DNA of 63,346 nucleotides from an uncultured Myxococcales bacterium (GTDB lineage Bacteria > Desulfobacterota > Binatia > UBA1149 > SPBQ01), in contig CAYZHO010000002.1 of assembly GCA_964478045.1 (NCBI GenBank), positions 1 through 63,346 of the forward strand. The letters run 5' to 3'. Position numbers and translations under genes: made by a program. Shown one piece after another: positions 3,495 through 38,289 of the stretch (its first letter is position 1; each line of letters begins with the position of its first letter). The notes under the pieces were generated by a model. The model was not told the origin of the DNA and made no database searches. It saw only the letters and a list, made by a program, of their open reading frames with translations.

Positions 3495-3498
3495 GTGG

Positions 3499-9061: not shown

Positions 9062-11944
9062 TTACGCCCAGGGACGCTCGCGCCGCCGCTTCACGGGCTC
9101 GAGCTCGATGCGCGTGCCGCGGTCGTTCATTCCCGGCTCGCCCATGATCATGAGCGGCTGCAAGTGGTAGTAGCCGCCCGCCAACTGGATCGGGTTGAGC
9201 GGGGTTGCAACAATCGACTGGTGGGAGCGCCTGTGCTTGAACTGGTGCGGCTCCCACGCGTGGTAGACCGCCACCTGCCCGGGCCGCATGGACGGCGCGA
9301 TCTTCGCCTCGACCTCGAAGCTGCCCAGGTCGTTTCGAACGCGCACGAGATCGCCGTCTTCGATTCCGCGTTCGGCCGCGTCGCGAGGATGGATGAACGC
9401 TACCGGCCGCCCGCGCTGCAGCCGCAGCATCAGCGGATTGTCGCGCCAGGAAGCGTGGATCGACCAGCGGGTGTGGCCGCCGGTCATCTTGAGCGGATAG
9501 TCGCCGCCGATCGGCGGGTTGTCCTTGTGTACGGGTAGAACCTCACCGAGCTCGCGGTAGAACGGGTGATCGATGTAGAACTGCATCCGCCGCGTGAGCG
9601 TCGGCCACGGCTGCTTGTCGCGCACGTGCCAAGTGTTGGCCGTAATCGTTTCGTTCGGTTCGATGTCGGTGGCGTTTCCGATGTTGACCGGGCTGCTGCC
9701 AAGCGCGGTAAAGCGGGCGAACCCCTTCTCCTTCAGTTCGTCCCACGTCACGCCGCCGAGGTTCGTGTTCACCTCGAGAAGGGCCCGCAGGAACTCTTCA
9801 CCGTTTTCTTCCGTGTAGCGGCCGCCGTATGTCATCCGGTAATAGACTTGGTCGAGCCGGCGCTCTTTGCCGCTACGGTCCCGGAACGTGCGGATCCCGC
9901 GCTGCTTGGCGCGCTTCTCGATGTGCTTCATGAACAGGCAATGGATCGCCCAGTCTGACTTCGCCTCTCCAAGCGGCTCGACGGCTTTCGTCGTAACCTG
10001 GCAGAACGGCGCGTGAGGCGTGGCCCACGTGATGTCGTCGCGCTCGTACCAAGCGGCAGCTGGCAGCACGTAGTCTCCGTACAGTGCCGTCGTGCTCATT
10101 CGCCAGTCGACAACGACGAACAAGTCGAGGCGCGGCAAGAAGTTGTCGATCAGCTCCGGATAGCCCCGCACGCGCCGCAGGAAGTTGCCGCCGACCGAGA
10201 AGAAGATCTTGGGCTCTGTCTCGGGAACGACTTGCCATCCCTTTGCCTTGGCCTCGGCCAAGTACTCGGACATCTCGCGGGGCAAAGAGCGATCCCAGCG
10301 CTTGGCGCTTCCGGTGCGCGCTTGCATGCCGAACTGGTGGAAAAACAGGGGCGACGGCACGAAACCGCCACGCCGGTACTCCTCCCGGGCCTGTTCGACG
10401 AGGAACATCTCCCAGGTCTTCCCCTCGGCCTTTGCCTTTAGGATGGCCGGGGCCTTTTCCACGCCGAGTGCGATCATGCCGAGCTTGAGCGGCATCACGG
10501 GCGCCACTCCAGCCGCCTCGGGCGCTTCGACCGTCAGCCACGGGAAGGCGTTCATCCCCGCTCCTTTCTTGCCAATGTGGCCGCATAGGGCGAGGACGAG
10601 GATCTGCGCCCGCTCCATTTCCATGCCGTGGTAGTACTTCGAGAAGTTCGACTCGGTCATGATCGTCGCCGCGCGCGCTCGCCCGATCATTCGGGCGAGC
10701 TTGCGAATGAGCGACGGCGGCGTGCCGGTCACCTTGGCTGCTTCTTCGGGCTTGTAGCGGGCCAAGTGACGGCGCAGCCGCGCGAACACCGGTTCCACGG
10801 TGACCGGGCCGTCGGCCGTGCGGACCGTGAACTCTCCTTCGAGCGCCGGACGCCGGCCGCCAAGTTCGAGGGAGCGCCGCGGAGCCGGTTCGACGCGGTC
10901 GGCCGCTTCGTCGAAGAAGTAAAAGACGTCGTCCGCACCTCCTTTGGTGAAGTCCCGCTCCCGGAGCAGGAGCCCGTTGTCCTTGCGCACAAGCAGCGGC
11001 AAGTCGGTCTGTTCTCGGACGAAGTCCCGGTCGAAGAGGCCTTCCTCGATGATCACGTGCGCCAGCGACAGCCCAAGCGCCGCGTCGGTTCCCATCTCGA
11101 CCGGGACCCACAGATCCGAATGGATCGACGACGCACTGTAGTCCGGCGCGATCGTGACGACCGTTGCGCCATTATAGCGCGTCTCGGTCAGGAAGTGCGC
11201 GTTCGGAATCTGCGTGTAGATCGGATTGCCGCCCCAGATCAGTACCAAGTCCGAGTAGAACCAATCGTCCGCCGAGCTCGCGTAGCAGATCTTCCCCGTT
11301 GTAACCGCCGCACCGGGATGGTGGTCGCCGATCTCGGCGTTCGCGTCGAGCATGATACTGTCGAGGACGAAGTTGTTGCGGACAACACCGACGCCGTGGC
11401 CGCCGTTCGTAAAGGAGGTGCCGAAGTCCCAGTAGATCGAGCCAGGTCCGTCGGTGACCAGCACGTCGATCATCCGGTCCGCGATGTCGTCGAGCGCTTC
11501 CTCCCAGCTCACCCGTTTCCACCGTCCTTGACCGCGCCGCCCGACGCGCTTGAGGGGGTGCGTGATACGCCCCGGGTCGTACATGCGGTGGCTATAGCAG
11601 CCTCCTTTTTGGCAACCGCGCGGATTGTAGTCGGGAACGTCCGCGTTGGTCTGCGGGTAGATTCCAGCCTGTTCTTCGCGCAGAACCACCCCATCCTTGA
11701 CGTAGACGTTCCAGTTGCAGCCGCGCTGGTACCAGCAGTTAACGTGATGGGTCCCCTTGGCCACGCGGTCCCACTTCCAGCGCTCCCTGTAGACGTCCTG
11801 CCACTTCTCGTAGCGGACGGGCACCGGCGCGCCCGCGTGGGCGAAATCCGCCCGGAGCACCAGCCGCCCGAGGGTAAGCCCGAGTGCAGCCGCTCCGGTA
11901 GCCTGCAAGAACTGGCGGCGAGTGAGTTTCGTGGAATCCGTCAT
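9062..11944 (-). CDS. Type II DMSO-reductase-family molybdopterin oxidoreductase alpha subunit, EbdA/NarG-like, Tat signal (paralog A1)
   Basis: The ATG at 11944 (ATGA overlap with the A2 stop) gives MTDSTKLTRRQFLQATGAAAL. FS0-type motif HHVNC-x5-C-x34-C. Conserved blocks EQTDLPLLVR, WPTLTRRMQFYIDH, GGHTRWSIH. 960 aa. Confidence 0.88.
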   Translation of the reverse strand: MTDSTKLTRRQFLQATGAAALGLTLGRLVLRADFAHAGAPVPVRYEKWQDVYRERWKWDRVAKGTHHVNCWYQRGCNWNVYVKDGVVLREEQAGIYPQTNADVPDYNPRGCQKGGCYSHRMYDPGRITHPLKRVGRRGQGRWKRVSWEEALDDIADRMIDVLVTDGPGSIYWDFGTSFTNGGHGVGVVRNNFVLDSIMLDANAEIGDHHPGAAVTTGKICYASSADDWFYSDLVLIWGGNPIYTQIPNAHFLTETRYNGATVVTIAPDYSASSIHSDLWVPVEMGTDAALGLSLAHVIIEEGLFDRDFVREQTDLPLLVRKDNGLLLRERDFTKGGADDVFYFFDEAADRVEPAPRRSLELGGRRPALEGEFTVRTADGPVTVEPVFARLRRHLARYKPEEAAKVTGTPPSLIRKLARMIGRARAATIMTESNFSKYYHGMEMERAQILVLALCGHIGKKGAGMNAFPWLTVEAPEAAGVAPVMPLKLGMIALGVEKAPAILKAKAEGKTWEMFLVEQAREEYRRGGFVPSPLFFHQFGMQARTGSAKRWDRSLPREMSEYLAEAKAKGWQVVPETEPKIFFSVGGNFLRRVRGYPELIDNFLPRLDLFVVVDWRMSTTALYGDYVLPAAAWYERDDITWATPHAPFCQVTTKAVEPLGEAKSDWAIHCLFMKHIEKRAKQRGIRTFRDRSGKERRLDQVYYRMTYGGRYTEENGEEFLRALLEVNTNLGGVTWDELKEKGFARFTALGSSPVNIGNATDIEPNETITANTWHVRDKQPWPTLTRRMQFYIDHPFYRELGEVLPVHKDNPPIGGDYPLKMTGGHTRWSIHASWRDNPLMLRLQRGRPVAFIHPRDAAERGIEDGDLVRVRNDLGSFEVEAKIAPSMRPGQVAVYHAWEPHQFKHRRSHQSIVATPLNPIQLAGGYYHLQPLMIMGEPGMNDRGTRIELEPVKRRRERPWA

Positions 11945-14793
11945 ACGCGCTCGACCTCCACGGTCGTACCCCGCGGCGTGTGGTGCGGGCCCGCAAACAA
12001 GAAGCGATAGTGAAGCTGCCCGTACTCGGTCATGTGCAGCGCCTTCCAGGGAGAAGGAACGGGTTGCTGGTTGCTCTTCCAATCCTTGAACTGGTGCGGC
12101 TCCCAGGCGTGATAAATGATCAATTGGCCCGGCTGCACGGCCGGACTGATCTTGGCGAGCATCTCGCACGAGCCGACGTCGTTGTACACCCGGACCCGGT
12201 CGTTGTCCCGTATGCCCCGGCGCTTGGCGTCTTCCTTGCTCATGTAGAGCGCCGGCTCACCCCGCTGCAAGCGAAGCATGAGCGGTTCGTCGCGCCAGGT
12301 GGAGTGAATCGACCACCTCGTATGCCCGCCGGTCATTCGCAGCGGATAGTTGCCGCCCGCCGGCGGCGGCTCCTTGTGTACCGGCAACTCCTCGCCAGCT
12401 TCGAGGAACCACGGATGGTCGATGTAAAACTGCATGCGACCGGTGAGCGTGGGCCAGGGTTGCTTGTGCTGTACGAACCACTGGCACGGATAGATGGAGT
12501 CCTCGGGCTCCCAATCGCTGCAAATGTTCGTGTGGGTGCGGAAGGGCCCCAGCGCCTTGATCGGAACCGCTCCCTGCTCGGCCGCCTCTTTCCAAGAGAT
12601 GTAGCCCATCTCGGGCGACTCGCTGGCTGCGATTTCGTAGTAACGCAGGTCGTCGTCCGGATCGAACTCGCCGTCGTGCGACCAGCGGTCGTAAATCCGG
12701 GAAAAGTCGCGCGGGTTGCCGTGAGCATCCGGTACCTTTGAGATACCCCGGGCGCGGGCCTTCTCTTGGAGAATCCGAGCAACATCGCCCCAAATCTTCC
12801 ACTCTGTGCGCGACTCCCCTAGCGGAGGAACCCCCTGCTCGCCGACCATGTAGTACGGCACGTAACTCTGGGCGTACTTGATCCCGCGGCGCTCGTAGTA
12901 CCCAGCCGCCGGCAATACGATGTCCGACTTGAGCGCCGTCGCCGACATCTTGATGTTGACGCCGACGATCAAGTCGCACTTCGGCCACAGGGTCTTTTCG
13001 ATCACCTGAGGCGCAGGCCAGCGCCGCAGTGGATTCACCCTCGTGTGCACGAGGATGCGGGGCCGCTTTTCGCGGCGCGGGAATAACGGAACCCAGTTGT
13101 TCTCTACCGCTTCGTGCATGGCCTCGGGAAGCGGCTTGCCGGGCTTCGGATCGTGATAGCTGGGGTTGTCGACCACCTCGTTCAACCCGCCGTGGTGGTA
13201 CAGGAACATCAGCGCCGGCGTGTAGAGTTTGCTCTTCTCGTAGTCGCGGAAGTACTTGATGTATTCGCGGACGGTCGGCTTGAAGAGCTTGAGCAGCAAG
13301 CGCTGATACCAAGTCGGCTTCACTCCAGAGACCGCCGACTCGATGCTGCTCAACATGTACCACGCACCGATCTTCAGGCCCGTACCGCGGTAGCCGACGT
13401 TTCCCGTCAGCGCGAGAAGCAAGATGATGCCGCGCTGGAATAGGTCGCTGTGGTAATGCTTCATCGACCCCCACGACGCAAACATGTTGACGGCCTTCGC
13501 CCGGGCCATTTCGCGCGCCAACTCCCGGATCGTCTCGGCGCCCACGCCCGTAATACGCTCCACGCGCTCGGGCGTGTAGTCAGCGAGCCGCTTCTTGAGA
13601 TACTCGAACACCGGGCGTACCCGCACCGTCTCCCCGCTTGCCAACTTCACCTCGAAGCGGCCCTCGAGGGCGGGATCGAGATTGCCGAGAGCGAGCGTGC
13701 TGCGCCGGCCGAGCCCCTCGCTGCCGGGGGCCTTGGCCAAGCGACCACCGGCGAGGTCCCACAGGTAGAAGACGTTATCGGCTCCGCCTTTTTTGAGGTC
13801 CGATTCGCGCAGGAAGCGCCGCGTGTCTTCACGCACTAGCAAAGGCAAATCGGTTTGCTCCTTGACGTAGTGCGCTTTGTAGATTCCCTCGTCCACCATG
13901 ACCTTGGCCATCCCCAGGGCCAGGGCCGCGTCGGTTCCGACGCGCAGGTTGATCCATTGGTCTGCGTGGATCGTCGAGGCGTTGTAATCGGGTGCGACGC
14001 TGATCACCTTGGCGCCGCGGTAGCGGGCCTCCCAGAAGAAGTGCGCTTCAGGAATGCGCGTGTACGAAGGATTGCCCAACCAGATGAAGATGAGGTCGGA
14101 TCGGACGAAGTCGTCGGCTGTCCCGTCCGTATTGAAAAGCCCCCACGTCATGATCACGCCGAGCGGCATGTCGCCCACCGTCGCCCAACCGTCGAGCTGG
14201 GTTGCACCAATGTAGTCGAAGAACGACATTTCGCCCGACGTCGCGGCACCGTAGCCGGCATTTGCGGTACCGCTCTCGTGGATGATGCACTCGGGGCCGT
14301 CCTCGCGGATGACCTCGAGCATCTTTTCCGTAATCTCTTCGTAGGCTTCCTCCCAGGTAATGCGCTTCCACTTCCCGGAGCCACGCGGCCCAACCCGCTT
14401 TACGGGATACTTGAGCCGCTGCGGGCCGTACATCACCTGGCTGAAGCAGGCCCCCTTTTGGCAGCCGCGCGGATTGTAGTCGGGCAAGTCGGTCGCCCGC
14501 GCCTTCATGATCGCATTCTGCTCTTCGCGCCAGACGATTCCGTCTTTGATGTACAGAACCCAAGGGCATGCCGAGGCGCAGTTGGCCACGTGGTGCGTCG
14601 CGTTGACGACCTTATCCCAGGTCCACTTCTGCCGGTACACGTCCTCCCAAGACGCATAACCCCGGCCGCCGGTGGCGCCTCGCGCACCGCGCGCTCGCGC
14701 CTTTTGCGGTACGGCCAATCGTAACTGGAGCAACGAGAGGGTCAGTACCGCCGATCCTTTGAGGAACGTGCGCCGTGTCAGCCGATCCTTCAT
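11941..14793 (-). CDS. Type II DMSO-reductase-family molybdopterin oxidoreductase alpha subunit, EbdA/NarG-like, Tat signal (paralog A2)
   Basis: MKDRLTRRTFLKGSAV Tat motif. H-x3-C-x3-C-x34-C (HHVANCASAC...NPRGC). Blocks EQTDLPLLVR, WPTLTGRMQFYIDHPWF, GGHTRWSIH. AAGGAG RBS upstream. Confidence 0.9.
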   Translation of the reverse strand: MKDRLTRRTFLKGSAVLTLSLLQLRLAVPQKARARGARGATGGRGYASWEDVYRQKWTWDKVVNATHHVANCASACPWVLYIKDGIVWREEQNAIMKARATDLPDYNPRGCQKGACFSQVMYGPQRLKYPVKRVGPRGSGKWKRITWEEAYEEITEKMLEVIREDGPECIIHESGTANAGYGAATSGEMSFFDYIGATQLDGWATVGDMPLGVIMTWGLFNTDGTADDFVRSDLIFIWLGNPSYTRIPEAHFFWEARYRGAKVISVAPDYNASTIHADQWINLRVGTDAALALGMAKVMVDEGIYKAHYVKEQTDLPLLVREDTRRFLRESDLKKGGADNVFYLWDLAGGRLAKAPGSEGLGRRSTLALGNLDPALEGRFEVKLASGETVRVRPVFEYLKKRLADYTPERVERITGVGAETIRELAREMARAKAVNMFASWGSMKHYHSDLFQRGIILLLALTGNVGYRGTGLKIGAWYMLSSIESAVSGVKPTWYQRLLLKLFKPTVREYIKYFRDYEKSKLYTPALMFLYHHGGLNEVVDNPSYHDPKPGKPLPEAMHEAVENNWVPLFPRREKRPRILVHTRVNPLRRWPAPQVIEKTLWPKCDLIVGVNIKMSATALKSDIVLPAAGYYERRGIKYAQSYVPYYMVGEQGVPPLGESRTEWKIWGDVARILQEKARARGISKVPDAHGNPRDFSRIYDRWSHDGEFDPDDDLRYYEIAASESPEMGYISWKEAAEQGAVPIKALGPFRTHTNICSDWEPEDSIYPCQWFVQHKQPWPTLTGRMQFYIDHPWFLEAGEELPVHKEPPPAGGNYPLRMTGGHTRWSIHSTWRDEPLMLRLQRGEPALYMSKEDAKRRGIRDNDRVRVYNDVGSCEMLAKISPAVQPGQLIIYHAWEPHQFKDWKSNQQPVPSPWKALHMTEYGQLHYRFLFAGPHHTPRGTTVEVERV

Positions 14794-14836
14794 GACCTAC
14801 TCCTTCCCCTAGTCTCCCGCCTTGGGCTCTCGGCCT

Positions 14837-15904
14837 TTACGAGCGGGCGGGCAGTTTGGCCGGATTCTGTGTGAAATCGGGAAAGATCTGTTCCGGCCAC
14901 TTGTAGACCACGAGAGTGTCGAGGATCTCCGAGCGCTCGCCCCGCCGCACCCGCTCGAGCTCCGCTTGCAGCGTCGCGAGTGCTTCATCTACGCCTGGAC
15001 CGAACAAGCTGCGGAGGTACTCGGTCGGAATGCGCGGCCGGCTGCGATCAGGGTTGCCGTCCGGCCCGATCCGCGGCGGCGCAAGTGGAGGAACGTAGTA
15101 CACGTTCGGCTCGGTGTTGAACTCGGGGTGCAGCGGCAGCGCTACTTTCCACAGCTTCACGAGCTTGTAGATCGGACCGTTCGGATCGTCGAGATAGCCG
15201 ACGAAGCGCAGTCGCCCCGGGCACTGGCGGGCGCATGCCGGCGCCACCCCTTTTTCGAGGCGCGGGAAGCAGAAAATGCACTTCTGCGCGATCTTTCGCT
15301 TGACGTTAAAGTAAATCCGCTTGTACGGGCACGCTTCCATGCAGAACCGGTAGCCCCGGCAACGGTCTTCGTTGATCCGGACAATCCCGTCCTCCTCGCG
15401 CTTTTCGATCGCACCGCGGGGACATGCCTCGAGGCATGCGGGATGGGTACAGTGGTTGCAGATCCTGGGCAGGTAGAAGTAATAACAGTTGGGATAGTCT
15501 CCGGCGCCTTGGTCCTCGTCCCAGTTGGGCCCCCACTCAGGCTTTCTCCCTTGGGGCGCCAAATGTGCTTCCTGGCCTTTGCCCCCGTAGAAAACCTCTT
15601 CATAGTTGAACTGCCAGGCAACGCCGAAGTCTTCCATAGTCGGCAATTTCCCCGGACGCGGTACGCCCTCCCGGTCGAAGCCGCCTCCGGACTTCTCCCA
15701 GTCGCGCGGGGTGCCTCGACCGGGCATGGTGTTTACGACCGTCCACCACATGCCCTCCATTCCTTCCTCGCGCGTCCACAGGGTCTTGCATGCGATCGTG
15801 CAGGTCTGACAGCCAAGGCACTTGTTGAGATCGAAGACCATGGCGAGTTGATGGGCACTGCCCGTCGCGCCTTTTCTCCGGCGTCGCTGGGTTACGTCGG
15901 CCAT
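14837..15904 (-). CDS. NarH/EbdB-like iron-sulfur (beta) subunit, four Cys clusters (B1)
   Basis: CLGCQTCTIAC, CNHCTHPACLEAC, CRGYRFCMEACP and CIFCFPRLEKGVAPACARQCP Cys groups. 355 aa. GGGAGGA RBS. Very similar to 29343-30404. Confidence 0.92.
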   Translation of the reverse strand: MADVTQRRRRKGATGSAHQLAMVFDLNKCLGCQTCTIACKTLWTREEGMEGMWWTVVNTMPGRGTPRDWEKSGGGFDREGVPRPGKLPTMEDFGVAWQFNYEEVFYGGKGQEAHLAPQGRKPEWGPNWDEDQGAGDYPNCYYFYLPRICNHCTHPACLEACPRGAIEKREEDGIVRINEDRCRGYRFCMEACPYKRIYFNVKRKIAQKCIFCFPRLEKGVAPACARQCPGRLRFVGYLDDPNGPIYKLVKLWKVALPLHPEFNTEPNVYYVPPLAPPRIGPDGNPDRSRPRIPTEYLRSLFGPGVDEALATLQAELERVRRGERSEILDTLVVYKWPEQIFPDFTQNPAKLPARS

Positions 15905-15966
15905 CTGGTCCTCCCTTCGGCGCGCGCCCCGGCCTCCCGCGGGGGCAGCAGCCGGCGCGAGCTGTC

Positions 15967-15980
15967 CAAACGAACGTTTG
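15967..15980. promoter_or_regulatory. Inverted repeat CAAACG-AA-CGTTTG in an AT-rich divergent intergenic region (candidate operator)
   Basis: Read directly from the sequence. It lies in the most AT-rich stretch of the 15905-15998 spacer, between the B1-A2-A1 operon and the kinase gene. Confidence 0.3.
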
Positions 15981-15998
15981 TTTGTTTTTAGCTGCTAG

Positions 15999-17192
15999 TT
16001 GCCTGTATTGCAAGGGATTTCTCCGATCAGCGCACGCTGCAGGGTCGTTTTGCGTTGGCTCGAACAGCCCTTTAAAGAAGTCGAGCGCCTGCCGGGTGGC
16101 CGCCCAACGAGCGGAGAACAAGCAACATTGAGCGAACGGAACGCGCCTCGAACGGACGAGCAGATTCTCGCGGGCATCGAGCAGTTTCTGCGGGCCCGCC
16201 TGCCTGAGCGAAGCGGGCTCAAGGTCACCGGGCTCAAAAAGCACACGGAAGGATTTTCGCTGGAAACCTACTCGTTCGACGTCGAGTGGCACGAAAACGG
16301 GGGCAGGCGCACCGAGAGGCTCGTGGTTCGCAAGGAGCCGCCCGCGGGACTCCTCGAACCCTACGATCTCGAGCCGCAGTACCGCGTCCTCGCCGCCTTG
16401 GCCGACACCCCCGTGGTAGCCCCGCGCGTGCTGTGGTTCGAATCGGACCCGTCTTTTCTCGGTGCTCCCTTCTACGTCATGGAGTGGGTCGAGGGGGAGG
16501 TCCCGCTTCCGATCCTCGACGAAGACGGGGGGCTGCCGATTCGCGACGATGCGGTTCGCGAGAGCGTCGGGCGTGACTTCGCGCGGATTCTCGCGGCAAT
16601 CCACACCGTGGACTGGCGCGCCAAGGAGCTTGACTTCCTCGGAGCTCCCCGCGACGGGCGGGATGCGGCCGAGCGCGCGGTCGACACGTGGGCGGGCTAC
16701 ATCGAGCGGGCCCGTCTCGGCCCCTTGCCGATGCTCACGTACGCGCTGGGATGGCTGCGGCGGCATTTGCCGCGCGAGGCACCCATCACGCTCGTCCACG
16801 GCGACTACCGTACCGGCAACTTCATCATGCGCGCAGGCCGGATCGTCGCCTTCCTCGACTGGGAGATGGTCCACCTGGGCGATCCGATGGAAGACGTGGC
16901 CTGGAGCGTCTCGCGAATTTGGCGCGGTGAATCTGGGCTGGCCGGCCACTTGATCGAACGAGAGCGGCTGTTCGAGTGGTACCGCGAAGCCGGCGGCCAC
17001 GAAGTCGACGAGGAACGCGTGCGTTTCTATGAAGTTCTCTCGGGCGTCAAGATGGCCGCGATCATGCTCACCGGGATCAAGGCTTGGCACGACGGGCGAA
17101 CCCGTGACATGCGCATGGGATTCTTCGATCAGCAGTTGGCGGGAATGCATGCGATCATCGCGGACGCGATGGGCTTGATCCAACTTCCATAG
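15999..17192 (+). CDS. APH-family phosphotransferase (aminoglycoside/choline-kinase-like kinase fold)
   Basis: Catalytic-loop motif HGDYRTGNFIM (HxDxxxxN) and FLDWEMVHLGDPMEDVAW. The start is uncertain. The listed start is a TTG at 15999. An in-frame TTG at 16128 preceded by GGAGAA is an alternative. Confidence 0.75.
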   Translation: MPVLQGISPISARCRVVLRWLEQPFKEVERLPGGRPTSGEQATLSERNAPRTDEQILAGIEQFLRARLPERSGLKVTGLKKHTEGFSLETYSFDVEWHENGGRRTERLVVRKEPPAGLLEPYDLEPQYRVLAALADTPVVAPRVLWFESDPSFLGAPFYVMEWVEGEVPLPILDEDGGLPIRDDAVRESVGRDFARILAAIHTVDWRAKELDFLGAPRDGRDAAERAVDTWAGYIERARLGPLPMLTYALGWLRRHLPREAPITLVHGDYRTGNFIMRAGRIVAFLDWEMVHLGDPMEDVAWSVSRIWRGESGLAGHLIERERLFEWYREAGGHEVDEERVRFYEVLSGVKMAAIMLTGIKAWHDGRTRDMRMGFFDQQLAGMHAIIADAMGLIQLP

Positions 17193-17214
17193 CGAAGATC
17201 GACTCGGGCAAACG

Positions 17215-17709: not shown

Positions 17710-17731
17710 ACCGCCGAAGAGGAGAAGGACG

Positions 17732-18673: not shown

Positions 18674-18704
18674 ACAACCGGAAGAGCCGGCGGCCGAGAT
18701 CGGG

Positions 18705-30424: not shown

Positions 30425-31075
30425 TCACTCCGCAAGCTGAAACTCGATCCAGTTCTCCGTAAAGCCCTTGTAGCCGGCCCTTTCGCCGTGGCTTCCTTCC
30501 CAAACCGCTACGCCGAACTTGGACGAGGCGCCCGGGGCCAGCCGCACGGACTTACCGCCCCCCGCACCGGCGAGGTCGCGCGCGAGCACGAGCAGCCATC
30601 GGTCGCCCTTGTGGACCGCCTTGGCTTCGACCGCCTCCCCGGTCGGCTCGGTGGTGCCGACTCCTTTCGCCCACACCGAGCGGCCCTCCTCGCTGTCCGC
30701 GCGCCACTGCCACCCGTTGACCCACTGCTGCTCGTTGCCCATCGTGTTGATCGGGGCATCCTTGCCAATCGGGAACAGCACCGCAGCGCCGTCCGGAAAC
30801 ACGTTGTTGTCGGTCGGCTCCCGGTTTTCCGTGGGGTCCTTCCACTCGAGGCGAATGTAGAGCTTGCTGCCGTCGTGGCACAGCCTCGCCTCGACCTGCT
30901 TGACGGCGTTGATCTCCTTCTTGTCCTTCCACGCCGTGCGCGTATATGGCGTCGGCTGGTTGCCGATCGGCGTGGGCTTGAGCTCGAGCGACAGCGGCTT
31001 CACGGCGCTCCATGCGGAGGACGTCGGGTCGAGGAGCTTGTCGTGAGCCGCGCTGACCTTCTTGACTACCAGCAT
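30425..31075 (-). CDS. EbdC-like (EB_dh family) haem b gamma subunit, no N-terminal signal peptide
   Basis: 216 aa, matching the size of type II DMSOR gamma subunits. Candidate Met (PINTMGN) and Lys (ERAGYKGFTENW) haem ligands. Strong GGGAGGG RBS 6-7 nt before the ATG. The upstream in-frame sequence is hydrophilic, so no hidden signal peptide exists. Confidence 0.78.
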   Translation of the reverse strand: MLVVKKVSAAHDKLLDPTSSAWSAVKPLSLELKPTPIGNQPTPYTRTAWKDKKEINAVKQVEARLCHDGSKLYIRLEWKDPTENREPTDNNVFPDGAAVLFPIGKDAPINTMGNEQQWVNGWQWRADSEEGRSVWAKGVGTTEPTGEAVEAKAVHKGDRWLLVLARDLAGAGGGKSVRLAPGASSKFGVAVWEGSHGERAGYKGFTENWIEFQLAE

Positions 31076-31698
31076 GTGAGACCCTCCCTGCTCGTTCTTA
31101 CCTTTTCGGTTCGTTGTCCCCCGGTCACTAACAGGCGCACTCGCACGAGCCGCGCCCGCAGGTTGCGCACTGTACGCCCGAGACTAGCCAGTACGTGCAG
31201 TGGAATCATCACGTACAGCGCATAGCTGAACACGTCGTGCAGCGTGTAGGACCAGTCGATCACCGGATCGGGGAGACCCCGCTGAAACCACAGCAGAAAC
31301 CCGGTTACCACGAAGACGGCGCCCGAAACGATCGTGAACCAGAGGTTGATCGCGTGGATGGCCAACTTCTCCAGCCGCCAACTGCGCAACTGGATCGTTT
31401 CCCATGCTTCGGCCGGCCCCAGCGCAAAGGCGAGCAGGGGCACGACGAGCATCGCCACTCCCGCCCACTCGTGCCACCACGCTACCGTTTGGCCGTAGCC
31501 GCCGATCAAGCGCGCTCGCCAATCCGGGTACTGAATCAGCAGCCCCGTCGCCACCAGCACGAACACGACCGTGGCGTACAGGAAGTGGAACCAAGGATAC
31601 GAGGCCCACGGTTCGAAAGCCCGGCTGGAGACCGGCTCAGCCGGGGCTTCGACCGGAGTCTCAAGGTCCTCGGCCAATGATGTCCGCTGCGCGTTCAC
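31066..31698 (-). CDS. Four-helix membrane dihaem cytochrome b (FdnI / Ni-Fe-hydrogenase cytochrome b-like)
   Basis: The GTG at 31698 forms a GTGA overlap with the A6 stop. Four hydrophobic helices each carry His (WFHFLY, WWHEWAG, AIHAINLW, TLHDV..IPLHVL). The 3' end overlaps the gamma gene start by 10 nt. Confidence 0.65.
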   Translation of the reverse strand: MNAQRTSLAEDLETPVEAPAEPVSSRAFEPWASYPWFHFLYATVVFVLVATGLLIQYPDWRARLIGGYGQTVAWWHEWAGVAMLVVPLLAFALGPAEAWETIQLRSWRLEKLAIHAINLWFTIVSGAVFVVTGFLLWFQRGLPDPVIDWSYTLHDVFSYALYVMIPLHVLASLGRTVRNLRARLVRVRLLVTGGQRTEKVRTSREGLTCW

Positions 31699-34600
31699 GC
31701 GACCTTCCTCATGCCCACGGCAACTGCTCGGTCGGCCTGCACCGGTTGCCAGTTCCACCGCCAGTAACGCAGGTGTCCGTAGCCGCCGGCAAAGTGGAGA
31801 TACTTGACCATCCCGGGAATTGCCGCGTCGTAACTACGCCAGTTCGGAAACTGGTACGGCTCCCACGCGTGGTAGATGACGACTTGACCTGGCCGCACAG
31901 AAGGTGCCGTGATGATGTGAACCTGGAACCGGTCGAAGTCGTTGTATACTTCGACCAGGTCCCCGTCCTTTGCCCCAATCCGCTCGGCGTCCTTCGGGTT
32001 GACGAACAGGCCCGGCCGTCCCCGGTGCGTGTACTGGATCAGCTTGTTGACCACCCAGATCGAGTGGATACTCCAGCGCAAGTGCCCGCTCGTCATGCGG
32101 AACGGGTAGTCGCCACCCATCTTCGGGTTCGGCTTGAAGACCGGCAGCTCCTCGCCCGCTTCCAGGAACCAGTCGTGGTCGATGTAGAACTGGGCCCGGC
32201 GCGAGTACGTCGGATAGGGCACCTTGTCCCGCACGTGCCATTGTAAAGCGACCACCGGCTTGTCCGGCTCGATGTCGCAGGAGGTGTTGAGCGAGACCGG
32301 ATCGTACGGGTCGAGCCCCGTCATCCGGTGAAAGCCCTTTTCTTTGTAGTCCTCGAGCGTCGCGCTCTGGTCATAGAGCCCGATCCTGCGCTGATCGTCG
32401 ATCCATACTTTGAGCGCTTCGAGGTAGCCCTCGCGATTGACCGGCAGCTTGCGCGTGAACAAATCGTGGGCGTCCTCGTAGGTGCGCTTGATGCCGAGCC
32501 GCCGTGCCATTCCCGGCAGCACCACCGAGACGGCCCGCTCGAACAGCGCCTTGCCCATGATTCGGTGCAGGGCTCGCATGTAGCCCGGCAGCAAGGCCAC
32601 CAGGTCCGACGTCATGCGCTCTTCCTGGCGGAAGCTGTCGATCTTGCGCTCGCGGGCCCGGTCGCGAATCTTTTCCGACAGCCGGCCGAAGATCTCCCAC
32701 TCGGTGATGCAGTCGCCGACCGGCTCGACCGCCTTGTCCGTAAACGTGTTGTAACTGACCGTAGGCGTGAAGAAGCGAAAATCCTCGCGTTCGTAGAACC
32801 AGGCCGGCGGCAGCACCACGTCCGCGTACAGGCAGGTCGTGCTCATGCGCGGGTCCACGCACACCACCAGCTTGAGCTTCGGCCACAAGTGCTTGAGCAG
32901 GCGATTGAGCCCGCCGCGCGTGCGGCGCAGGGTGCTGCCGGCGATTCCGATCAGGACCTGAGGCGGCTTGTCCGGACCTGGCCGCATCAGGCCTTCCCAC
33001 CAGCCTTTCTTCTTCGCTTCCTCGACGTACTCGTCGAAGGAGCGCTTCATCGTGGGGTCCCCCCACTCTTTCTTGTTCCACACCTCCCGGTAGCCGGCGT
33101 GGTGGTACCAGTAGAACGCCGGCGGGACCATGCTCGTCAGCCGCCCGATGATCCGCTCGGATTCGATCGCCGCTTGCTCGTCCGTCAGGGTCGGATCGCG
33201 CTGGCGCAACAGCTTGATGAAGTTCCAGTGATTCTTGGTGATCCGCTCGAACTCTTCATCCCCGTGCTTCTCGCGCGCCATGGAGATGTGGGAGGCGTGC
33301 CCCGACTCGTTCCAGCCGGCGCTCCCCGTGCCCGAACGGCCCCAGTTGCCGCTCAGGGCTAGAACCAGCGACTGCGCCCGCTCGATCAAATCCCCGTGAT
33401 AGTACTTGGCCGAGTTCCACCCGAGGATGATCATCGTCTTTTTGGTCGCGACCAGGCGGGCCAGTCGCCGAATCACGCCGGGTGCCGTTCCGCACAGTTT
33501 CGACGCCTTCTCCGGCGTGTAGTCACGCTCGATCCGCTCGCGCAGCAGCGAGAACACCGTTCGCACCTCGACCGTCTCGCCGTTGGCGAGCTTGACCTCG
33601 GCGCGCGCGTCGAGCTTGGGATCGATGCCCTGCCATCGCAGCGTATCGAGCGGCGCCCGCGCCGGTTTGCCCGTGCGCGCATCGAGCACGTAGAGCTGGT
33701 CTTCGCGAACGCCTTCGCCTTCGAGCTCGGGCCCGCGCAGGTACTTGCGCGTATCGGTGCGCACGAGCAGCGGCAGATCCGTCTGCTCCTTGACGAACTC
33801 CTCGTTGACCAGCCCTTCGGAGATCATCACATGCGCCATGCCCAGGGCCAGTGCCGCATCGGCGCCGAAGTCGACCGGCACGTACAAGTCCGCGTGCATC
33901 GTCGAGGGGCTTGCATCCGGCGCAATCGTGACCACCGTCGCGCCGCGGTAGCGGGCCTCGGAGATGAAATGGTACGAGGGAATCCGGGTGTAGATCGGGT
34001 TCTTGTGCCAGATGAGAATGACGTCCGCGTTGAACCAGTCGTCGACCGAGCTGGCCTGCTGGAACTTACCGAACGTGATGTACTGGCCGACGTTGAAGTC
34101 GTTGATCAGGCCGTCGACGTCCAAGGTCGTCATTCCCTGGGACATCGCAAACCGGCTAGCCGCCTCGGCCTGAAAGATGCCGATGTTGCCGGGTCCCATC
34201 TCCATGATGCACGACTCGGGCCCGACGTTTTGCTGCGCGTCGATGATCGCATCGGCGACCATCGTTAGGGCCTCGTCCCAGGTAGCCCGGCGCCATTTGC
34301 CCTGGCCGCGCTCGCCGACTCGGATGAGCGGATACTTGATCCGCTCCTTGGCGTACATCACGTTGCCGAAGCTCGCCCCTTTCTGGCAGCCGCGGGGATT
34401 CATGTCCGGCATTTCCGGATTGAGCTGCGGGTAGTGGCCGGTTTGTTCCTCGCGAATGACCATCCCGTCCTTAACGTAGACCGTCCACGAGCAATTGCCC
34501 GGGTAGCAGTCCACGCAGTGAGTGACCCGGTGCCTGCTGTCCCAGGTCCACTTTTCGGCCATCAGCTTCTGCCAGTTCTCATAGGGCTTGGGCGGCTCCA

Positions 34601-34730
34601 CGGCCGGTGCCGCTTCGGCCCGAAGGGGAGCCAGACGCGACAAGGTCAGACCGACCACGGTCACCGCCGAGGTCTTGAGGAACTCTCTGCGCGTAATGTT
34701 AAGGCCCGTCATCTCTCCCGGTCCTTTCAT
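31695..34730 (-). CDS. Type II DMSO-reductase-family alpha subunit, divergent paralog (A6), Tat signal
   Basis: MKGPGEMTGLNITRREFLKTSAV (alternative ATG at 34712). Motif HCVDC-x4-C-x34-C. Blocks EQTDLPLLVR, YPTYSRRAQFYIDHDWF, SGHLRWSIH. It is the longest paralog (1005-1011 aa), with extra internal segments. Confidence 0.88.
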   Translation of the reverse strand: MKGPGEMTGLNITRREFLKTSAVTVVGLTLSRLAPLRAEAAPAVEPPKPYENWQKLMAEKWTWDSRHRVTHCVDCYPGNCSWTVYVKDGMVIREEQTGHYPQLNPEMPDMNPRGCQKGASFGNVMYAKERIKYPLIRVGERGQGKWRRATWDEALTMVADAIIDAQQNVGPESCIMEMGPGNIGIFQAEAASRFAMSQGMTTLDVDGLINDFNVGQYITFGKFQQASSVDDWFNADVILIWHKNPIYTRIPSYHFISEARYRGATVVTIAPDASPSTMHADLYVPVDFGADAALALGMAHVMISEGLVNEEFVKEQTDLPLLVRTDTRKYLRGPELEGEGVREDQLYVLDARTGKPARAPLDTLRWQGIDPKLDARAEVKLANGETVEVRTVFSLLRERIERDYTPEKASKLCGTAPGVIRRLARLVATKKTMIILGWNSAKYYHGDLIERAQSLVLALSGNWGRSGTGSAGWNESGHASHISMAREKHGDEEFERITKNHWNFIKLLRQRDPTLTDEQAAIESERIIGRLTSMVPPAFYWYHHAGYREVWNKKEWGDPTMKRSFDEYVEEAKKKGWWEGLMRPGPDKPPQVLIGIAGSTLRRTRGGLNRLLKHLWPKLKLVVCVDPRMSTTCLYADVVLPPAWFYEREDFRFFTPTVSYNTFTDKAVEPVGDCITEWEIFGRLSEKIRDRARERKIDSFRQEERMTSDLVALLPGYMRALHRIMGKALFERAVSVVLPGMARRLGIKRTYEDAHDLFTRKLPVNREGYLEALKVWIDDQRRIGLYDQSATLEDYKEKGFHRMTGLDPYDPVSLNTSCDIEPDKPVVALQWHVRDKVPYPTYSRRAQFYIDHDWFLEAGEELPVFKPNPKMGGDYPFRMTSGHLRWSIHSIWVVNKLIQYTHRGRPGLFVNPKDAERIGAKDGDLVEVYNDFDRFQVHIITAPSVRPGQVVIYHAWEPYQFPNWRSYDAAIPGMVKYLHFAGGYGHLRYWRWNWQPVQADRAVAVGMRKVA

Positions 34731-35227
34731 CCGTACAGCTCGTCGATCGCGTCGCTGATGCGGCGTACCATGTCCCGGAACGACTCGATTTCCTCGGGGC
34801 GAAAACGCTCGAGCAGGCGGCGCAGCCTAGCGATCTGCATCTCCTGAACGTCGCGCACGACTCGCCAACCCTCTCTCGTCAAGTAAAGATGGAAGCTACG
34901 GCGGTCGCTTGGGTCGGGACGTTTCTCGACCCACCCGAGCGAGCACAGCCGGCCGAGCGCCGTGCACGCCGACGGCGTGGTGATCGCCAGGCGGCGCGCG
35001 GCCTCAACGACCGACAGGCCCGGGTTGATTGAGAGCATTTCGAGGAAACGCAGTTGGCTCGGCGTGGCGCCGTAGCGGGTGTCGCTTACGACGTCGGAGA
35101 CGAAGTGCTTGAAGATCGCCGTAAGCAGACCCCCCAGCTCGTGGACGATCGCTAGTTCGACCGGCCCCGGCGAGTGTTCTCCCGGCGCCACGGTGGCGGC
35201 GCCGGGTACGGCTGTCTGGCGCTGCAT
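34727..35227 (-). CDS. MarR-family transcriptional regulator
   Basis: Winged-helix pattern: TPSQLRFLEMLSINPGLSVVEAARRLAITTPSACTALGRLCSLGWVEKRPDPSDRRSFHLYLTREG. Its stop forms an ATGA overlap with the A6 start. Confidence 0.85.
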   Translation of the reverse strand: MQRQTAVPGAATVAPGEHSPGPVELAIVHELGGLLTAIFKHFVSDVVSDTRYGATPSQLRFLEMLSINPGLSVVEAARRLAITTPSACTALGRLCSLGWVEKRPDPSDRRSFHLYLTREGWRVVRDVQEMQIARLRRLLERFRPEEIESFRDMVRRISDAIDELYG

Positions 35228-35454: not shown

Positions 35455-38289
35455 ATGAACGGCGTTCACGTTTCCCGGCGCGAGTTTCTCAGGATTTCCA
35501 GCGCTACCCTTCTCGTGCTGAGCCTAGCCTCGCTCGAGCCTGCCGCGGCGCTGGCTGGGCGCAAGCCGAAGGCACCCGCGTACGGGGACTGGCGCGACCT
35601 GTACCGCAGAAAGTTCACTTGGGATCGCCGCGTGCGTTGCACTCACGTGGTCAACTGCTGGTATCAGCGCAATTGTGCTTGGGACGTGTTCGTCAAAGAC
35701 GGAGTCGTGCTGCGCGAGGAGCAGGCCGGACAATACCCGGCCGGATGCGGGGATGCGCCCGACTTCAACCCCCGCGGGTGCCAGAAGGGAGCCTGTTACT
35801 CCTCGGTCGTCAACTCGCCGGCGCGCCTGCTTTATCCGCTGAAGCGAGTCGGCCCGCGCGGGACCTGCAAGTGGAAGCGCGTGACCTGGGACGAAGCGCT
35901 CGACGAAATCGCCGACCGCTTGATCGACGCGGCCGTCGATCCGGGCCCAGAAACGATCGTCCTTGACATCGGCGGCAGCCTGGCCTCCTCGACCTGGCGC
36001 TTAGGCATTCGCCGGATCATCGACCTGCTCGACGGAATCGAGCTCGATACGAATACCGAGCTCGACGACGGGCAAGGCGGAGCCTCCGTCACGTTCGGCA
36101 CGCCGGTAGCGTCGCGGTCGGCCGACGACTTGTTCCGGTCGGACGTCATTCTGATTTGGGGTGCCAATCCGGTCTACACGCAGATTCCAAATGCCCACTT
36201 CATCAACGAGGCACGCTACCGGGGCGCCACGGTCGTGACGATCGCCCCGGACTACTCTGCATCGGCCATTCACGCGGACTTGTATGTGCCGATCCGCCCC
36301 GGCACCGACGCTGCCCTGGCGCTTGGAGTAGCCCGCCACATGATCGCCACGGGGCGCTACGACACCGACTTCATCCGCTCCCAGACCGACCTGCCCTTGC
36401 TGGTGCGCGAGGACGGGCGCTTCCTGCGCCAGGCCGATCTGCAGCCGGGAGGCCGAACCGACGTCTTCTACGCTCTCGATGAGCGCACGGGGGAAATCGT
36501 CGAGGCACCGGCAAGCCACTTGGACTGGGGCTCGGCCAGACCGGCCCTTACGGGATCGGCCCGCGTGGCCACCCGCGAGGGTAAAGTGCTCGTGCGGCCG
36601 GTTTTCGAGATCCTGCGCGAGCGGCTCGAGCGCGGTTATCGGCTCGAACAAGTCGCCGCGATCTGCGGTACGCCGGCACCGGTCGTCGAGCGCTTCGCCG
36701 AAATCGTAGCCAGCGCCCGCAGCCTGGCCGGCATTGCCGGCTCCTGCATTCCGAAGTTCTACCACGGTGACTTGATGATGCGGGCGCAAATTCTCGTGTT
36801 CGTGCTCGGCGGCCACCTCGGGCGCCCGGGGGCGGGATACGACACGTGCCCGTTCCTGCGACTCGACGGCCTCGACCGTTTCGGAGCATCCCAGATCGAA
36901 GGACTGCTAGCCAAGCTCAAGATGGCACCGGCCCTCGTGCGCAAGCGCCTGGCCGGCGAAACCAAAGAGCGCGTGCTCGCCGACCTGATGCGGGACTACA
37001 TGGAAACGGCAAACGTTTTCTCGTCGGTCCTGTACTGGCGCGAGCACGGCCACCTCAAGGAGCGGACCGACGCGCCTTGGGGCCGCGACCTTCGGCGCCC
37101 CGTGTCGGCCTACGTCGAACGCTCGCTGGCCAGCGGGTGGCAGCGCAGGCCGCCCGCCCACGGCCCCCGCGTCTTATTCCTGGCGGGGAGCAACCTGGTT
37201 CGCCGCTTGCGTTCTTCCGACCTACTCGTCGAGCGCGCCTTTCCCAGTATCGACCTGATCGTGACGACCGACGTGCGCATGACCACCAGCTGTCTGTACT
37301 CCGACATCCTTCTGCCCGGTGCCACTTCGTACGAAAAAGACGACGTTCCGAACTGGTTCACGCTCCTGTCGCCTTTCCTGCACATCACGCAAGCAGCGGT
37401 GCCGCCGCGGGGCGAGGCAAAACCCGAGTGGACGATTCACGCGCTCTTGGCCCGGGCGATCGAGCGGCGCGCCCGGGCCCGGGGCATCAAGACCTACCGC
37501 GACCGAAGCGGCAAGCTGCGCCGCCTCGACGACTTCTATCGCCGCTTTACGGCAGGCGGCAAGTACGGCCCCGAGGCTCAGTCTGAAGTCGCCGCCGAGG
37601 TCGTCGAAAAAACCTCGTTCGTGCCGGCCACGTTCGATGAACTACGGCCCAAAGGCTTCGTCCGCGTAAGTGGAATCGGCAGCCATCCCATCAACCTCGG
37701 CAACGCCACCGACGTCCGGCCCGACCAGCCGGTGGTCAACCGTCAGTGGCGCCGCACGCGTCCCGGGCCGTGGCCCACTCTGACGCGTCGGATCCAGTTC
37801 TATATCGATCACCCTCTGTATCTCGAGCTCGGCGAAGAGCTGCCCGTACACAAGGAACCGCCCGCCTCCGGCGGGAACTTTCCGCTCATTCTCACCAGCG
37901 GGCATACGCGCTGGAGCATTCACTCGGGCTGGCGCAACGTGCCCTGGCTGCTCTACTTGCAACGGGGCCAGGCAGCCGCGTTCGTCGCCGCCCCCGACGC
38001 CCGCGCACGCGGCATCCGCGACGGCGATACGATCCGAATATGGAACGACGTGGGGGAGTTCTTCGTCCAGGCCAAAGTGTCGGCAGCCGTGAGACCGGGA
38101 ACGGTGATTCTCTACCATGCCTGGGAGGACTACCAATTCCCGGGGCGCCGCGGCTACCGCAACGTTCTGCCCTCTCCGCTCAATCCGGTCGAGTTGGCCG
38201 GTGACTACAATCACTTGCGGCCGGTTCCCGCCAGTCTTCAGCCGGGGCAGAACGATCGCGATACCCGCGTGGACATCGCACCCGCCTGA
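35455..38289 (+). CDS. Type II DMSO-reductase-family alpha subunit, EbdA/NarG-like, Tat signal (paralog A7), stand-alone
   Basis: GAGGAGGAGAGG RBS. MNGVHVSRREFLRISSATLL. Motif HVVNCWYQRNC...NPRGC. Blocks SQTDLPLLVR, WPTLTRRIQFYIDH, SGHTRWSIH. 944 aa. Confidence 0.9.
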   Translation: MNGVHVSRREFLRISSATLLVLSLASLEPAAALAGRKPKAPAYGDWRDLYRRKFTWDRRVRCTHVVNCWYQRNCAWDVFVKDGVVLREEQAGQYPAGCGDAPDFNPRGCQKGACYSSVVNSPARLLYPLKRVGPRGTCKWKRVTWDEALDEIADRLIDAAVDPGPETIVLDIGGSLASSTWRLGIRRIIDLLDGIELDTNTELDDGQGGASVTFGTPVASRSADDLFRSDVILIWGANPVYTQIPNAHFINEARYRGATVVTIAPDYSASAIHADLYVPIRPGTDAALALGVARHMIATGRYDTDFIRSQTDLPLLVREDGRFLRQADLQPGGRTDVFYALDERTGEIVEAPASHLDWGSARPALTGSARVATREGKVLVRPVFEILRERLERGYRLEQVAAICGTPAPVVERFAEIVASARSLAGIAGSCIPKFYHGDLMMRAQILVFVLGGHLGRPGAGYDTCPFLRLDGLDRFGASQIEGLLAKLKMAPALVRKRLAGETKERVLADLMRDYMETANVFSSVLYWREHGHLKERTDAPWGRDLRRPVSAYVERSLASGWQRRPPAHGPRVLFLAGSNLVRRLRSSDLLVERAFPSIDLIVTTDVRMTTSCLYSDILLPGATSYEKDDVPNWFTLLSPFLHITQAAVPPRGEAKPEWTIHALLARAIERRARARGIKTYRDRSGKLRRLDDFYRRFTAGGKYGPEAQSEVAAEVVEKTSFVPATFDELRPKGFVRVSGIGSHPINLGNATDVRPDQPVVNRQWRRTRPGPWPTLTRRIQFYIDHPLYLELGEELPVHKEPPASGGNFPLILTSGHTRWSIHSGWRNVPWLLYLQRGQAAAFVAAPDARARGIRDGDTIRIWNDVGEFFVQAKVSAAVRPGTVILYHAWEDYQFPGRRGYRNVLPSPLNPVELAGDYNHLRPVPASLQPGQNDRDTRVDIAPA

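Follow-up and report, generated by a model that had tools for sequence, protein, structure and literature searches.

The subject of this analysis is a 63,346-bp contig from an uncultured Myxococcales bacterium (GenBank assembly GCA_964478045.1, contig CAYZHO010000002.1), the whole of which we refer to as the window. We observed that ~29 kb of it hold seven paralogous catalytic alpha subunits (A1 to A7) of the type II dimethyl sulfoxide (DMSO) reductase family, together with two beta genes, one gamma gene, one delta (chaperone) gene, a kinase resembling 25-hydroxysteroid kinase (25-HSK) and a protein resembling 25-phosphosteroid lyase (25-PSL). From the gene content, we think it fairly probable that the cluster encodes periplasmic, water-dependent hydroxylases exported by twin-arginine translocation (Tat), coupled to an ATP-dependent dehydration, which would act on isoprenoid-type or steroid-like chains independently of O2. 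The preliminary description of this DNA had weighed anaerobic hydroxylation against the reduction of oxyanions. Since a 25-HSK-like kinase and a 25-PSL-like lyase lie in the cluster, and their linkage is conserved elsewhere, the hydroxylase reading is strengthened and the oxyanion alternative disfavoured.

All seven alpha reading frames are open, as had been reported, and encode proteins of 937-1011 amino acids (aa) that each match the Pfam families Molybdopterin (PF00384, E 3e-28 to 2e-46) and Molydop_binding (PF01568). Six are on the minus strand: A1 (9062-11944, 960 aa), A2 (11941-14793, 950 aa), A3 (20746-23559, 937 aa), A4 (23574-26429, 951 aa), A5 (26465-29329, 954 aa) and A6 (31695-34730, 1011 aa, including a 41-aa insertion). 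A7 (35455-38289, 944 aa) is on the plus strand. In A1 the TAT_signal model matches as well. Alignment reproduced the shared motifs that had been read from the sequence, namely (T/S/N)RRxFL, EQTDLPLLVR (SQTDLPLLVR in A7), (W/Y)PT..(T/S).R.QFY(I/V)DH, variants of GGHTRWSIH and an invariant Asp. The His/Cys3 motif of the FS0 iron-sulfur site, with its x34/35 spacing, was also recovered in all seven. It reads H-x3-C-x4/5-C-x34-C in A1, A5, A6 and A7 and H-x4-C-x3-C-x34/35-C in A2, A3 and A4, compared to H-x3-C-x3-C in the chlorate reductase subunit ClrA and the haloarchaeal periplasmic nitrate reductase subunit pNarG.

To locate the molybdenum ligands, we aligned A6 to the sequence of ethylbenzene dehydrogenase (EBDH; PDB 2IVF) and propagated the positions through a 31-sequence alignment. 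The invariant Asp corresponds to the molybdenum ligand Asp223 of the EBDH alpha subunit EbdA, and the equivalent of its partner Lys450 is likewise invariant from A1 to A7. Together with the Met108/Lys201 haem ligands of the gamma subunit, these residues place the enzymes in the Asp-ligated type II DMSO reductase family with an EbdC-type haem b subunit, in line with the initial assignment. The active-site His192 of EbdA is absent from all seven alphas, where the aligned residue is Pro, Gly, Ser, Thr, Leu, Glu or Asn; steroid C25 dehydrogenase (S25DH) has been reported to lack this histidine too (PMC6153880).

The partner genes named in the preliminary description were confirmed by matches to Fer4_11 (twice), EB_dh and Nitrate_red_del. 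The two four-cluster iron-sulfur subunits, beta1 (14837-15904, minus strand, 355 aa) and beta2 (29343-30404, minus strand, 353 aa), each match Fer4_11 with an E value of 7e-30 and are 74% identical to each other. This fits the idea of a common electron-transfer module, given identities of only 38-54% among the alphas; because the paralogues are this dissimilar, the alpha duplications must be old. Shared beta-gamma modules have precedent in Sterolibacterium denitrificans, where alpha1 and alpha2 are active with beta3gamma3 (PMC6016249). The haem b subunit gamma (30425-31075, minus strand, 216 aa) matches EB_dh (PF09459, E 3e-28) and EbdC (2ivf_C, E 8.5e-28) and keeps the haem ligands Met108 and Lys201 of EbdC; on TIGR03477 it scores 143 bits, under the cutoff of 169.85. 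The TorD/NarJ-type chaperone (20045-20725, minus strand, 226 aa; PF02613, E 2e-19) has orthologues of 66-72% identity. All parts of a holoenzyme are thus found: a four-cluster beta, a Met/Lys haem b gamma, a TorD/NarJ chaperone and a Tat signal on the alphas.

Six genes extend the cluster beyond those first listed, encoding a cytochrome b561, a dihaem cytochrome c, a MarR regulator, an APH-family kinase, a 164-aa protein and a DUF7065/DUF7064 protein. The cytochrome b561-type subunit (31066-31698, minus strand, 210 aa; PF01292 Ni_hydr_CYTB, E 1e-10) is a four-helix membrane protein with a probable GTG start at 31698, preceded by GAGGAAGG and overlapping the stop of A6. The dihaem cytochrome c (18705-20048, minus strand, 447 aa) has an N-terminal signal or anchor, two Cytochrome_CBB3/Cytochrom_C stretches and two CxxCH motifs, and is a candidate electron acceptor. 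Its CxxCH motifs stand ~125 residues apart in the N-terminal half, and Pfam covers the two N-terminal haem domains only. The MarR-family regulator (34727-35227, minus strand; PF12802, E 9e-15) ends in the start of A6 and is divergent from A7.

These genes are tightly packed. One minus-strand series runs from 35227 down to 18705 in the order MarR, A6, cytochrome b561, gamma, beta2, A5, A4, A3, chaperone and dihaem cytochrome c, with neighbours that overlap by 4-10 nt or stand 13-35 nt apart. A second, from 15904 down to 9062, comprises beta1, A2 and A1. Overlaps of 4 nt join A2 to A1 (the A1 start in the A2 stop), MarR to A6, A6 to cytochrome b561 and the chaperone to the cytochrome c, whose ATG at 20048 lies in the chaperone stop; the remaining gaps are 13-43 nt. 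Between the two series stands a plus-strand trio of the kinase, the 164-aa reading frame and the DUF7065/DUF7064 protein. The G+C content of the window is 62-69%. The ratio of seven alphas to two betas, one gamma and one delta counts a single contig, and since the window is that one contig, the rest of the genome may contain additional beta, gamma or delta genes.

Seven paralogues with few partner subunits on a metagenome-assembled contig could also be redundant or decaying duplicates, or an assembly artefact. This explanation is largely refuted, and we give it almost no weight. The reading frames are intact and their cofactor ligands complete, so the decay that had been named as a reason to abandon the proposal was not found, and identities of 38-54% do not suggest recent copying. 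Two contigs from independent metagenome-assembled genomes (MAGs), L005 and L006, reproduce the window layout with protein identities of 76-86%. Orthologues of A1 to A6 give ratios of nonsynonymous to synonymous substitution (dN/dS) of 0.08-0.14 (0.09 for A1, whose L005 orthologue is 84% identical, 0.09 for A2, 0.12-0.13 for A3 and for A4, 0.08-0.14 for A5), and these six genes are under purifying selection. Because of these ratios, and because the layout recurs in independent assemblies, the copies are neither pseudogenes nor an artefact. No orthologue of A7 was present among the fetched loci, where the nearest homologues listed are ~50% identical. The partners are conserved as well: beta1 is 87% identical to its L005 orthologue and beta2 84% to that in L004, the latter locus has the same order of alpha, cytochrome b, gamma and beta as the window, and the succession from chaperone to cytochrome c recurs in L004 and L006. 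In another locus, L001 (9462-12868), an A5-like alpha (74% identical) follows a cytochrome b561 gene, and neither a beta nor a gamma gene occurs within 10 kb; because this alpha stands alone behind its cytochrome, orphan alpha-cytochrome b pairs exist.

Next, we assessed how the alphas are related to characterized enzymes. A neighbour-joining tree (916 columns, 200 bootstraps; EbdA and ClrA included, S25dA, CmdA, SerA and DdhA left out) resolved three deep clades: clade I with A1, A5 and A7, in which A1 neighbours A5 and A7; clade II with A2, A3 and A4 (bootstrap 97.5); and clade III, which unites A6 with Chloroflexota alphas and EbdA (bootstrap 96.5). Pairwise phmmer scores showed a strong preference for EbdA in A6 (768 bits, against 472 for ClrA and 479 for pNarG), a moderate one in clade I (547-668, 495-577 and 481-536 bits, respectively) and none in clade II (535-612, 519-567 and 567-604 bits). 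The claim that all seven fit the EBDH/S25DH branch therefore stands robustly for A6 only; A1, A5 and A7 lean towards EbdA, and A2, A3 and A4 are about as distant from EbdA as from ClrA and pNarG. In the PDB, which has no S25DH entry, EbdA (2ivf_A) is the top match of A5 (E 5e-190, followed by the perchlorate reductase subunit PcrA at 2e-141) and matches A6 with an E value of 2e-235 and 788 bits, against 480 bits for PcrA. A tblastn search against plasmids found references of the oxyanion type only (ClrA, pNarG and a cld-linked enzyme). Look-ups for proteins identical to A5 or to the DUF7065/DUF7064 protein returned no record. Clade II differs from the other clades at about residues 60-80 as well, reading K(H/F)YHSDL where they read K.YHG.

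These comparisons bear on the possibility that some or all of the alphas, especially those of clade II, are periplasmic respiratory reductases or dehydrogenases (for nitrate, chlorate, selenate or dimethyl sulfide) wired through cytochrome b561 and cytochrome c, with the kinase and lyase as unrelated neighbours. Clade II scores pNarG and ClrA as high as EbdA (A2: EbdA 612, pNarG 604 bits; A3: pNarG 582, EbdA 535, ClrA 526 bits) and shares a C-x3-C spacing with them, a membrane cytochrome b and many multihaem cytochromes are close by, and haloarchaeal pNar loci also pair a cytochrome b with an alpha. Family models tell against it. On the EbdA NCBIfam model (NF042978), the seven alphas reach 570-819 bits (A1 697, A6 819), which is 125-370 bits above ClrA (446) and pNarG (439), and a Halomicrobium enzyme scores 411. 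On TIGR03479 (DMSO_red_II_alp), still the top-scoring model for all seven, they reach 843-976 bits (A1 962), just under the curated cutoff of 984.75 and 265-600 bits below ClrA and pNarG (1241-1452). As the equivalogue cutoff of the EbdA model is 2000 bits, none of the seven is an EbdA orthologue. Moreover, the window contains no chlorite dismutase and no Rieske or cytochrome bc partner, the clade II genes lie inside operons with clade I alphas and a shared chaperone, and in a related MAG described below, OFTM47, clade II genes, kinase and lyase form one consecutive run on the same strand. We consider a respiratory role improbable.

The plus-strand kinase and DUF7065/DUF7064 protein point to hydroxylation followed by dehydration. 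The kinase (16128-17192, plus strand, 354 aa) belongs to the APH family (PF01636, E 6e-38), and its sequence matches in the PDB are 3dxp, 3ats (Rv3168), 9fsg and the ACAD11 kinase domain. In ACAD10/11, a hydroxyl group is phosphorylated and the phosphate is then eliminated. The structural model (pLDDT 92.6) found 3dxp (Reut_A1007), 3ats and 9fsg/9ft5 (25-HSK) by Foldseek with E values of ~1e-18 to 6e-20 and TM scores of 0.69-0.79 (1e-18 and 0.78 for 25-HSK), compared to only ~1e-12 for antibiotic kinases. The kinase is thus predicted to have the APH fold of the Rv3168/25-HSK subgroup. 25-HSK was not among its 120 best homologues, a list filled by MAG proteins.

The DUF7065/DUF7064 protein (17732-18673, plus strand, 313 aa; Pfam) resembles 25-PSL. 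A profile of 30 homologues matched the 25-PSL entries 9fzn, 9g2i and 9g4c with an E value of 8.8e-12, compared to only 3.8e-5 for the single sequence. With its AlphaFold model (pLDDT 95.9), 25-PSL gave the five best Foldseek matches (E 5e-14, TM 0.68-0.71), followed by kievitone hydratase and AttH, and the motif G(H/S)RD(H/R)SWG is common to both proteins. The structures of 25-HSK and 25-PSL became public as recently as January 2026. The same protein scores 88.7 bits on the NCBIfam Rv3169 family model (NF053593) and does not reach its cutoff of 150. Rv3168 and Rv3169 have consecutive locus tags, which suggests the same pair of kinase and partner in mycobacteria. Between the two genes lies the conserved acidic 164-aa frame (17215-17709, plus strand), which matches no Pfam family. 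Orthologues fill the same slot in L003-L006, L009, L014, L055 and L060, with a dN/dS of ~0.2. Many other loci have an SCP2 domain there, fused to the kinase; as a detached SCP2 domain the 164-aa protein was rejected, with an hhalign probability of 0.5%.

To determine how widely the module occurs, we searched GTDB with the DUF profile, taking a single genome for each species, and obtained 51 loci, all from MAGs, labelled Myxococcales, Deltaproteobacteria, Binatia, Thermodesulfobacteriota, Chloroflexota/Dehalococcoidia and Polyangiaceae. In some three quarters of them the kinase gene immediately precedes the DUF gene, and in about 20 loci the kinase is fused to an SCP2 sterol/lipid-transfer domain. 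EbdA-like alphas occur within 10 kb in 9 of the 51 loci and across three groups (Myxococcales/Deltaproteobacteria, Thermodesulfobacteriota and Chloroflexota). In OFTM47, labelled Deltaproteobacteria, a single strand carries an A6-type alpha, cytochrome b, gamma, beta, three alphas, delta, cytochrome c, the APH kinase, a small reading frame, the DUF gene and a further alpha, followed on the opposite strand by an MMPL/Patched-like transporter. Its five alphas fall in ~25 kb, and S. denitrificans has eight genome-wide, so the earlier statement that the window is denser than any described system needs to be softened: the arrangement is not unique.

Relatives also carry genes for later steps. Three Chloroflexota loci (L023, L024 and L043) contain three EbdA-clade alphas, gamma, beta, the DUF gene and an APH-SCP2 fusion, along with two phytoene-desaturase-like flavoproteins, a zinc-dependent alcohol dehydrogenase and a tungsten-type aldehyde:ferredoxin oxidoreductase, a predicted gene set that would cover every step from a methyl group to a carboxylate. 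The L024 cluster lies at 466-20197, and L021 and L034 are partly alike. In the Thermodesulfobacteriota locus L011 (6952-17801), one strand holds a clade I alpha (61% identical to A1), a coenzyme A (CoA) ligase, an acyl-CoA dehydrogenase, a thiolase, a nitroreductase-family protein and an APH kinase. Judged by annotation, these gene sets appear to match, step for step, the S. denitrificans pathway of C25 hydroxylation, phosphorylation, phosphate elimination, allylic C26 hydroxylation, oxidation to the carboxylate, CoA activation and beta-oxidation, for which a flavin delta-24 desaturase provides a bypass (PMC7411048, PMC8449060, PMC11061730). We also considered whether clade I and clade II alphas are one-to-one S25DH-like and S26DH-like partners, and rejected this: OFTM47 combines a single clade I alpha with three of clade II, and in the Chloroflexota loci all alphas belong to clade III.

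The distribution of the pair bears equally on a second alternative, in which the alphas by themselves hydroxylate non-isoprenoid hydrocarbons such as alkylbenzenes, alkanes or monoterpenes, as do EBDH, p-cymene dehydrogenase and enzymes of Desulfococcus oleovorans, and the kinase and lyase serve another pathway. A6 is indeed closest to EbdA, and the APH-DUF pair often occurs with no alpha nearby and is on the opposite strand in the window. We nevertheless judge it unlikely, as alphas flank the pair in MAGs of Myxococcales/Deltaproteobacteria, Thermodesulfobacteriota and Chloroflexota and share one strand with it in OFTM47, the SCP2 fusion recurs in about 20 loci, and the missing His192 is a trait reported for S25DH (PMC6153880).

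Under the coupled hydroxylation-dehydration that we favour, different alphas would dock on a common beta (and gamma) module, assembled with the help of the single chaperone, and would differ in the substrate or position that they hydroxylate, one acting on a tertiary C-H, say, and another afterwards on an allylic methyl group. The cytoplasmic kinase would phosphorylate the tertiary alcohol, the DUF7065/DUF7064 protein would eliminate the phosphate to yield an alkene, and a second hydroxylase would attack the allylic methyl group of this alkene. Electrons might leave by way of haem b, with either the dihaem cytochrome c or the membrane cytochrome b561 and quinone as the recipient, and MarR could provide substrate-responsive control. 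Both the pathway and the sharing of alpha, beta and gamma subunits have precedents (PMC7411048, PMC8449060, PMC6016249, PMC11061730).

Several observations weigh against this interpretation. Identity of the kinase to 25-HSK is no more than 22-24%, and it is as close to Rv3168 and Reut_A1007; the DUF7065/DUF7064 protein is only 16-18% identical to 25-PSL, and a recovered 150-aa fragment of 25-PSL, tried as a member of Pfam DUF7065, gave no match. The DUF7065/DUF7064 protein is related to 25-PSL at the level of the superfamily only, and the kinase appears to be a superfamily relative of 25-HSK rather than its orthologue. In the window, their module runs opposite to the alpha operons, and about 40 of the 51 APH-DUF loci have no alpha within 10 kb, many standing alone in unrelated contexts. 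The window contains no genes for an alcohol dehydrogenase, an aldehyde dehydrogenase, a CoA ligase or beta-oxidation. Sharing of beta and gamma is deduced from gene counts on a single contig. As for the alphas, clade II is equidistant from EbdA, ClrA and haloarchaeal pNarG by phmmer and has the C-x3-C spacing of the reductases. The deep nodes of the neighbour-joining tree lack support, with bootstraps of 9 and 41 that include the separation from ClrA (9 for the seven alphas plus EbdA as a group apart from ClrA), and the comparisons cover EbdA, ClrA, pNarG and PcrA.

A broader proposal, which we put forward as a possibility that we rather doubt, is that the system serves a general O2-independent oxidation of terminal isopropyl or isopropenyl ends in isoprenoid lipids from bacteria or sediments, for instance hopanoids, squalene, carotenoids and phytanyl chains, and not sterol degradation. 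The clades would then represent a tertiary C-H hydroxylase, an allylic methyl hydroxylase and a cytochrome b561-anchored, quinone-coupled EbdA-like enzyme, with clade II, marked by its H-x4-C-x3-C FS0 site, as a so far uncharacterized functional branch of the type II DMSO reductase family. If this were true, the module, which recurs in MAGs labelled Myxococcales, Binatia, Thermodesulfobacteriota and Chloroflexota, would point to an anaerobic sink for recalcitrant isoprenoid biomarkers that is widespread and has gone unrecognised.

Immediately downstream of A7 are genes for the hopanoid side chain (38402-42325, minus strand). HpnJ scores 741 bits, over its cutoff of 578, HpnK 232.5 bits against a cutoff of 232.6, and an HpnI-like protein 248 bits, under its cutoff of 310; a class-III aminotransferase follows at ~43069-45027. 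By these annotations, the organism probably makes cyclitol-ether bacteriohopanepolyols. That hopanoids are a hydroxylase substrate is a speculative reading of the hpnIJK adjacency, which is absent in OFTM47. On the other side of the cluster, a plus-strand run at 143-9042 encodes multihaem c-type cytochromes (1076-2479, 3499-4113 and 7258-9042; Paired_CXXCH_1, MtrC/MtrF-like), interleaved with NHL-repeat beta-propeller proteins and a peroxiredoxin-TPR protein, and may be an extracytoplasmic electron-transfer system. Farther away, a 2283-aa protein (56383-63234, minus strand) with SpvB, TcdB middle/N, FG-GAP and RHS repeats resembles a Tc-toxin or Rhs-type polymorphic toxin and adjoins genes for MacB-type ABC transporters (49876-52258) and an outer-membrane efflux protein (52877-54289).

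A system with several S25DH/S26DH alphas, shared beta-gamma modules and 25-HSK with 25-PSL was already known, from a single cultured bacterium. New here are the full co-clustering, the 7:2:1:1 ratio within one contig, a single locus that combines three deeply divergent alpha clades, the addition of a cytochrome b561, a dihaem cytochrome c and the 164-aa protein, and the presence of the system in uncultured lineages, which carry the labels Myxococcales, Deltaproteobacteria, Binatia, Chloroflexota and Thermodesulfobacteriota. We found no earlier description of such clusters in Binatia, Myxococcota or Chloroflexota, nor a 25-PSL paper, in a search that left most subscription journals outside. To our knowledge, water-based, O2-independent hydroxylation of unactivated carbons is biochemically known from very few cultured denitrifiers. 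The window and its relatives present a toolkit of molybdenum hydroxylases, kinase and lyase (in relatives also alcohol and aldehyde oxidation and beta-oxidation) co-clustered across several phyla. This offers a compact, testable gene set for new substrates and points to a possible anaerobic turnover of sterols, hopanoids and other isoprenoid geological biomarkers. Seven divergent alphas with apparently one or two beta-gamma modules also form a panel for engineering regioselective hydroxylation, and S25DH is already in use for 25-hydroxyvitamin D3. Clade II is flagged as a branch of the NarG/EbdA family with as yet unpredictable chemistry.

The closest known system is the S25DH1-4/S26DH1-3 set of S. 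denitrificans with 25-HSK and 25-PSL, to which we likened the window by gene content. Both have many type II DMSO reductase alpha paralogues (eight in S. denitrificans), and there some alphas without a beta-gamma pair of their own work with that of another (PMC6016249). Both also have a dedicated TorD-like chaperone, periplasmic Tat-exported enzymes, a haem b gamma, no EbdA-type His192, and an APH-type kinase with an AttH/CrtC-fold lyase (PMC7411048, PMC8449060; PDB 9fsg, 9fzn). In S. denitrificans, however, no lyase candidate is near the kinase gene (PMC8449060), whereas the window has all components in 29 kb. The ratio of alpha to beta to gamma to delta is 7:2:1:1 in the window and 8:6:6:2 in S. 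denitrificans, and the window paralogues are 38-54% identical, compared to 72-82% within S25DH1-4. The window adds cytochrome b561 (absent from EBDH and S25DH as described), the dihaem cytochrome c and the 164-aa frame, its kinase and lyase-like proteins share no more than 16-24% identity with 25-HSK and 25-PSL, and its host is an uncultured, Myxococcales-like organism.

EbdABCD of Aromatoleum aromaticum (2IVF) supplies the best solved relative of A5 and A6 and has the same alpha, beta, gamma and delta parts, and the equivalents of Asp223 and Lys450 and the Met/Lys ligation of haem b are kept in the window. In contrast, the window alphas are only 35-42% identical to EbdA and lack His192, the gene order is gamma, beta, alpha and not alpha, beta, gamma, delta, and several alphas accompany each beta-gamma pair. 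ClrABDC and the haloarchaeal periplasmic nitrate reductase share the type II family and its cofactor ligands with the window alphas, to which they are 34-40% identical, and have the C-x3-C spacing common to clade II. Unlike the window alphas, they pass TIGR03479 (1241-1452 bits), and they reach fewer bits on the EbdA model; chlorite dismutase or Rieske/cytochrome bc genes, absent from the window, are found in their loci. Finally, Rv3168 (3ATS) and Rv3169 of Mycobacterium tuberculosis parallel the plus-strand pair: the window kinase is as close to Rv3168 as to 25-HSK, and the DUF protein matches the Rv3169 family model, albeit at 88.7 bits and hence under the cutoff of 150.

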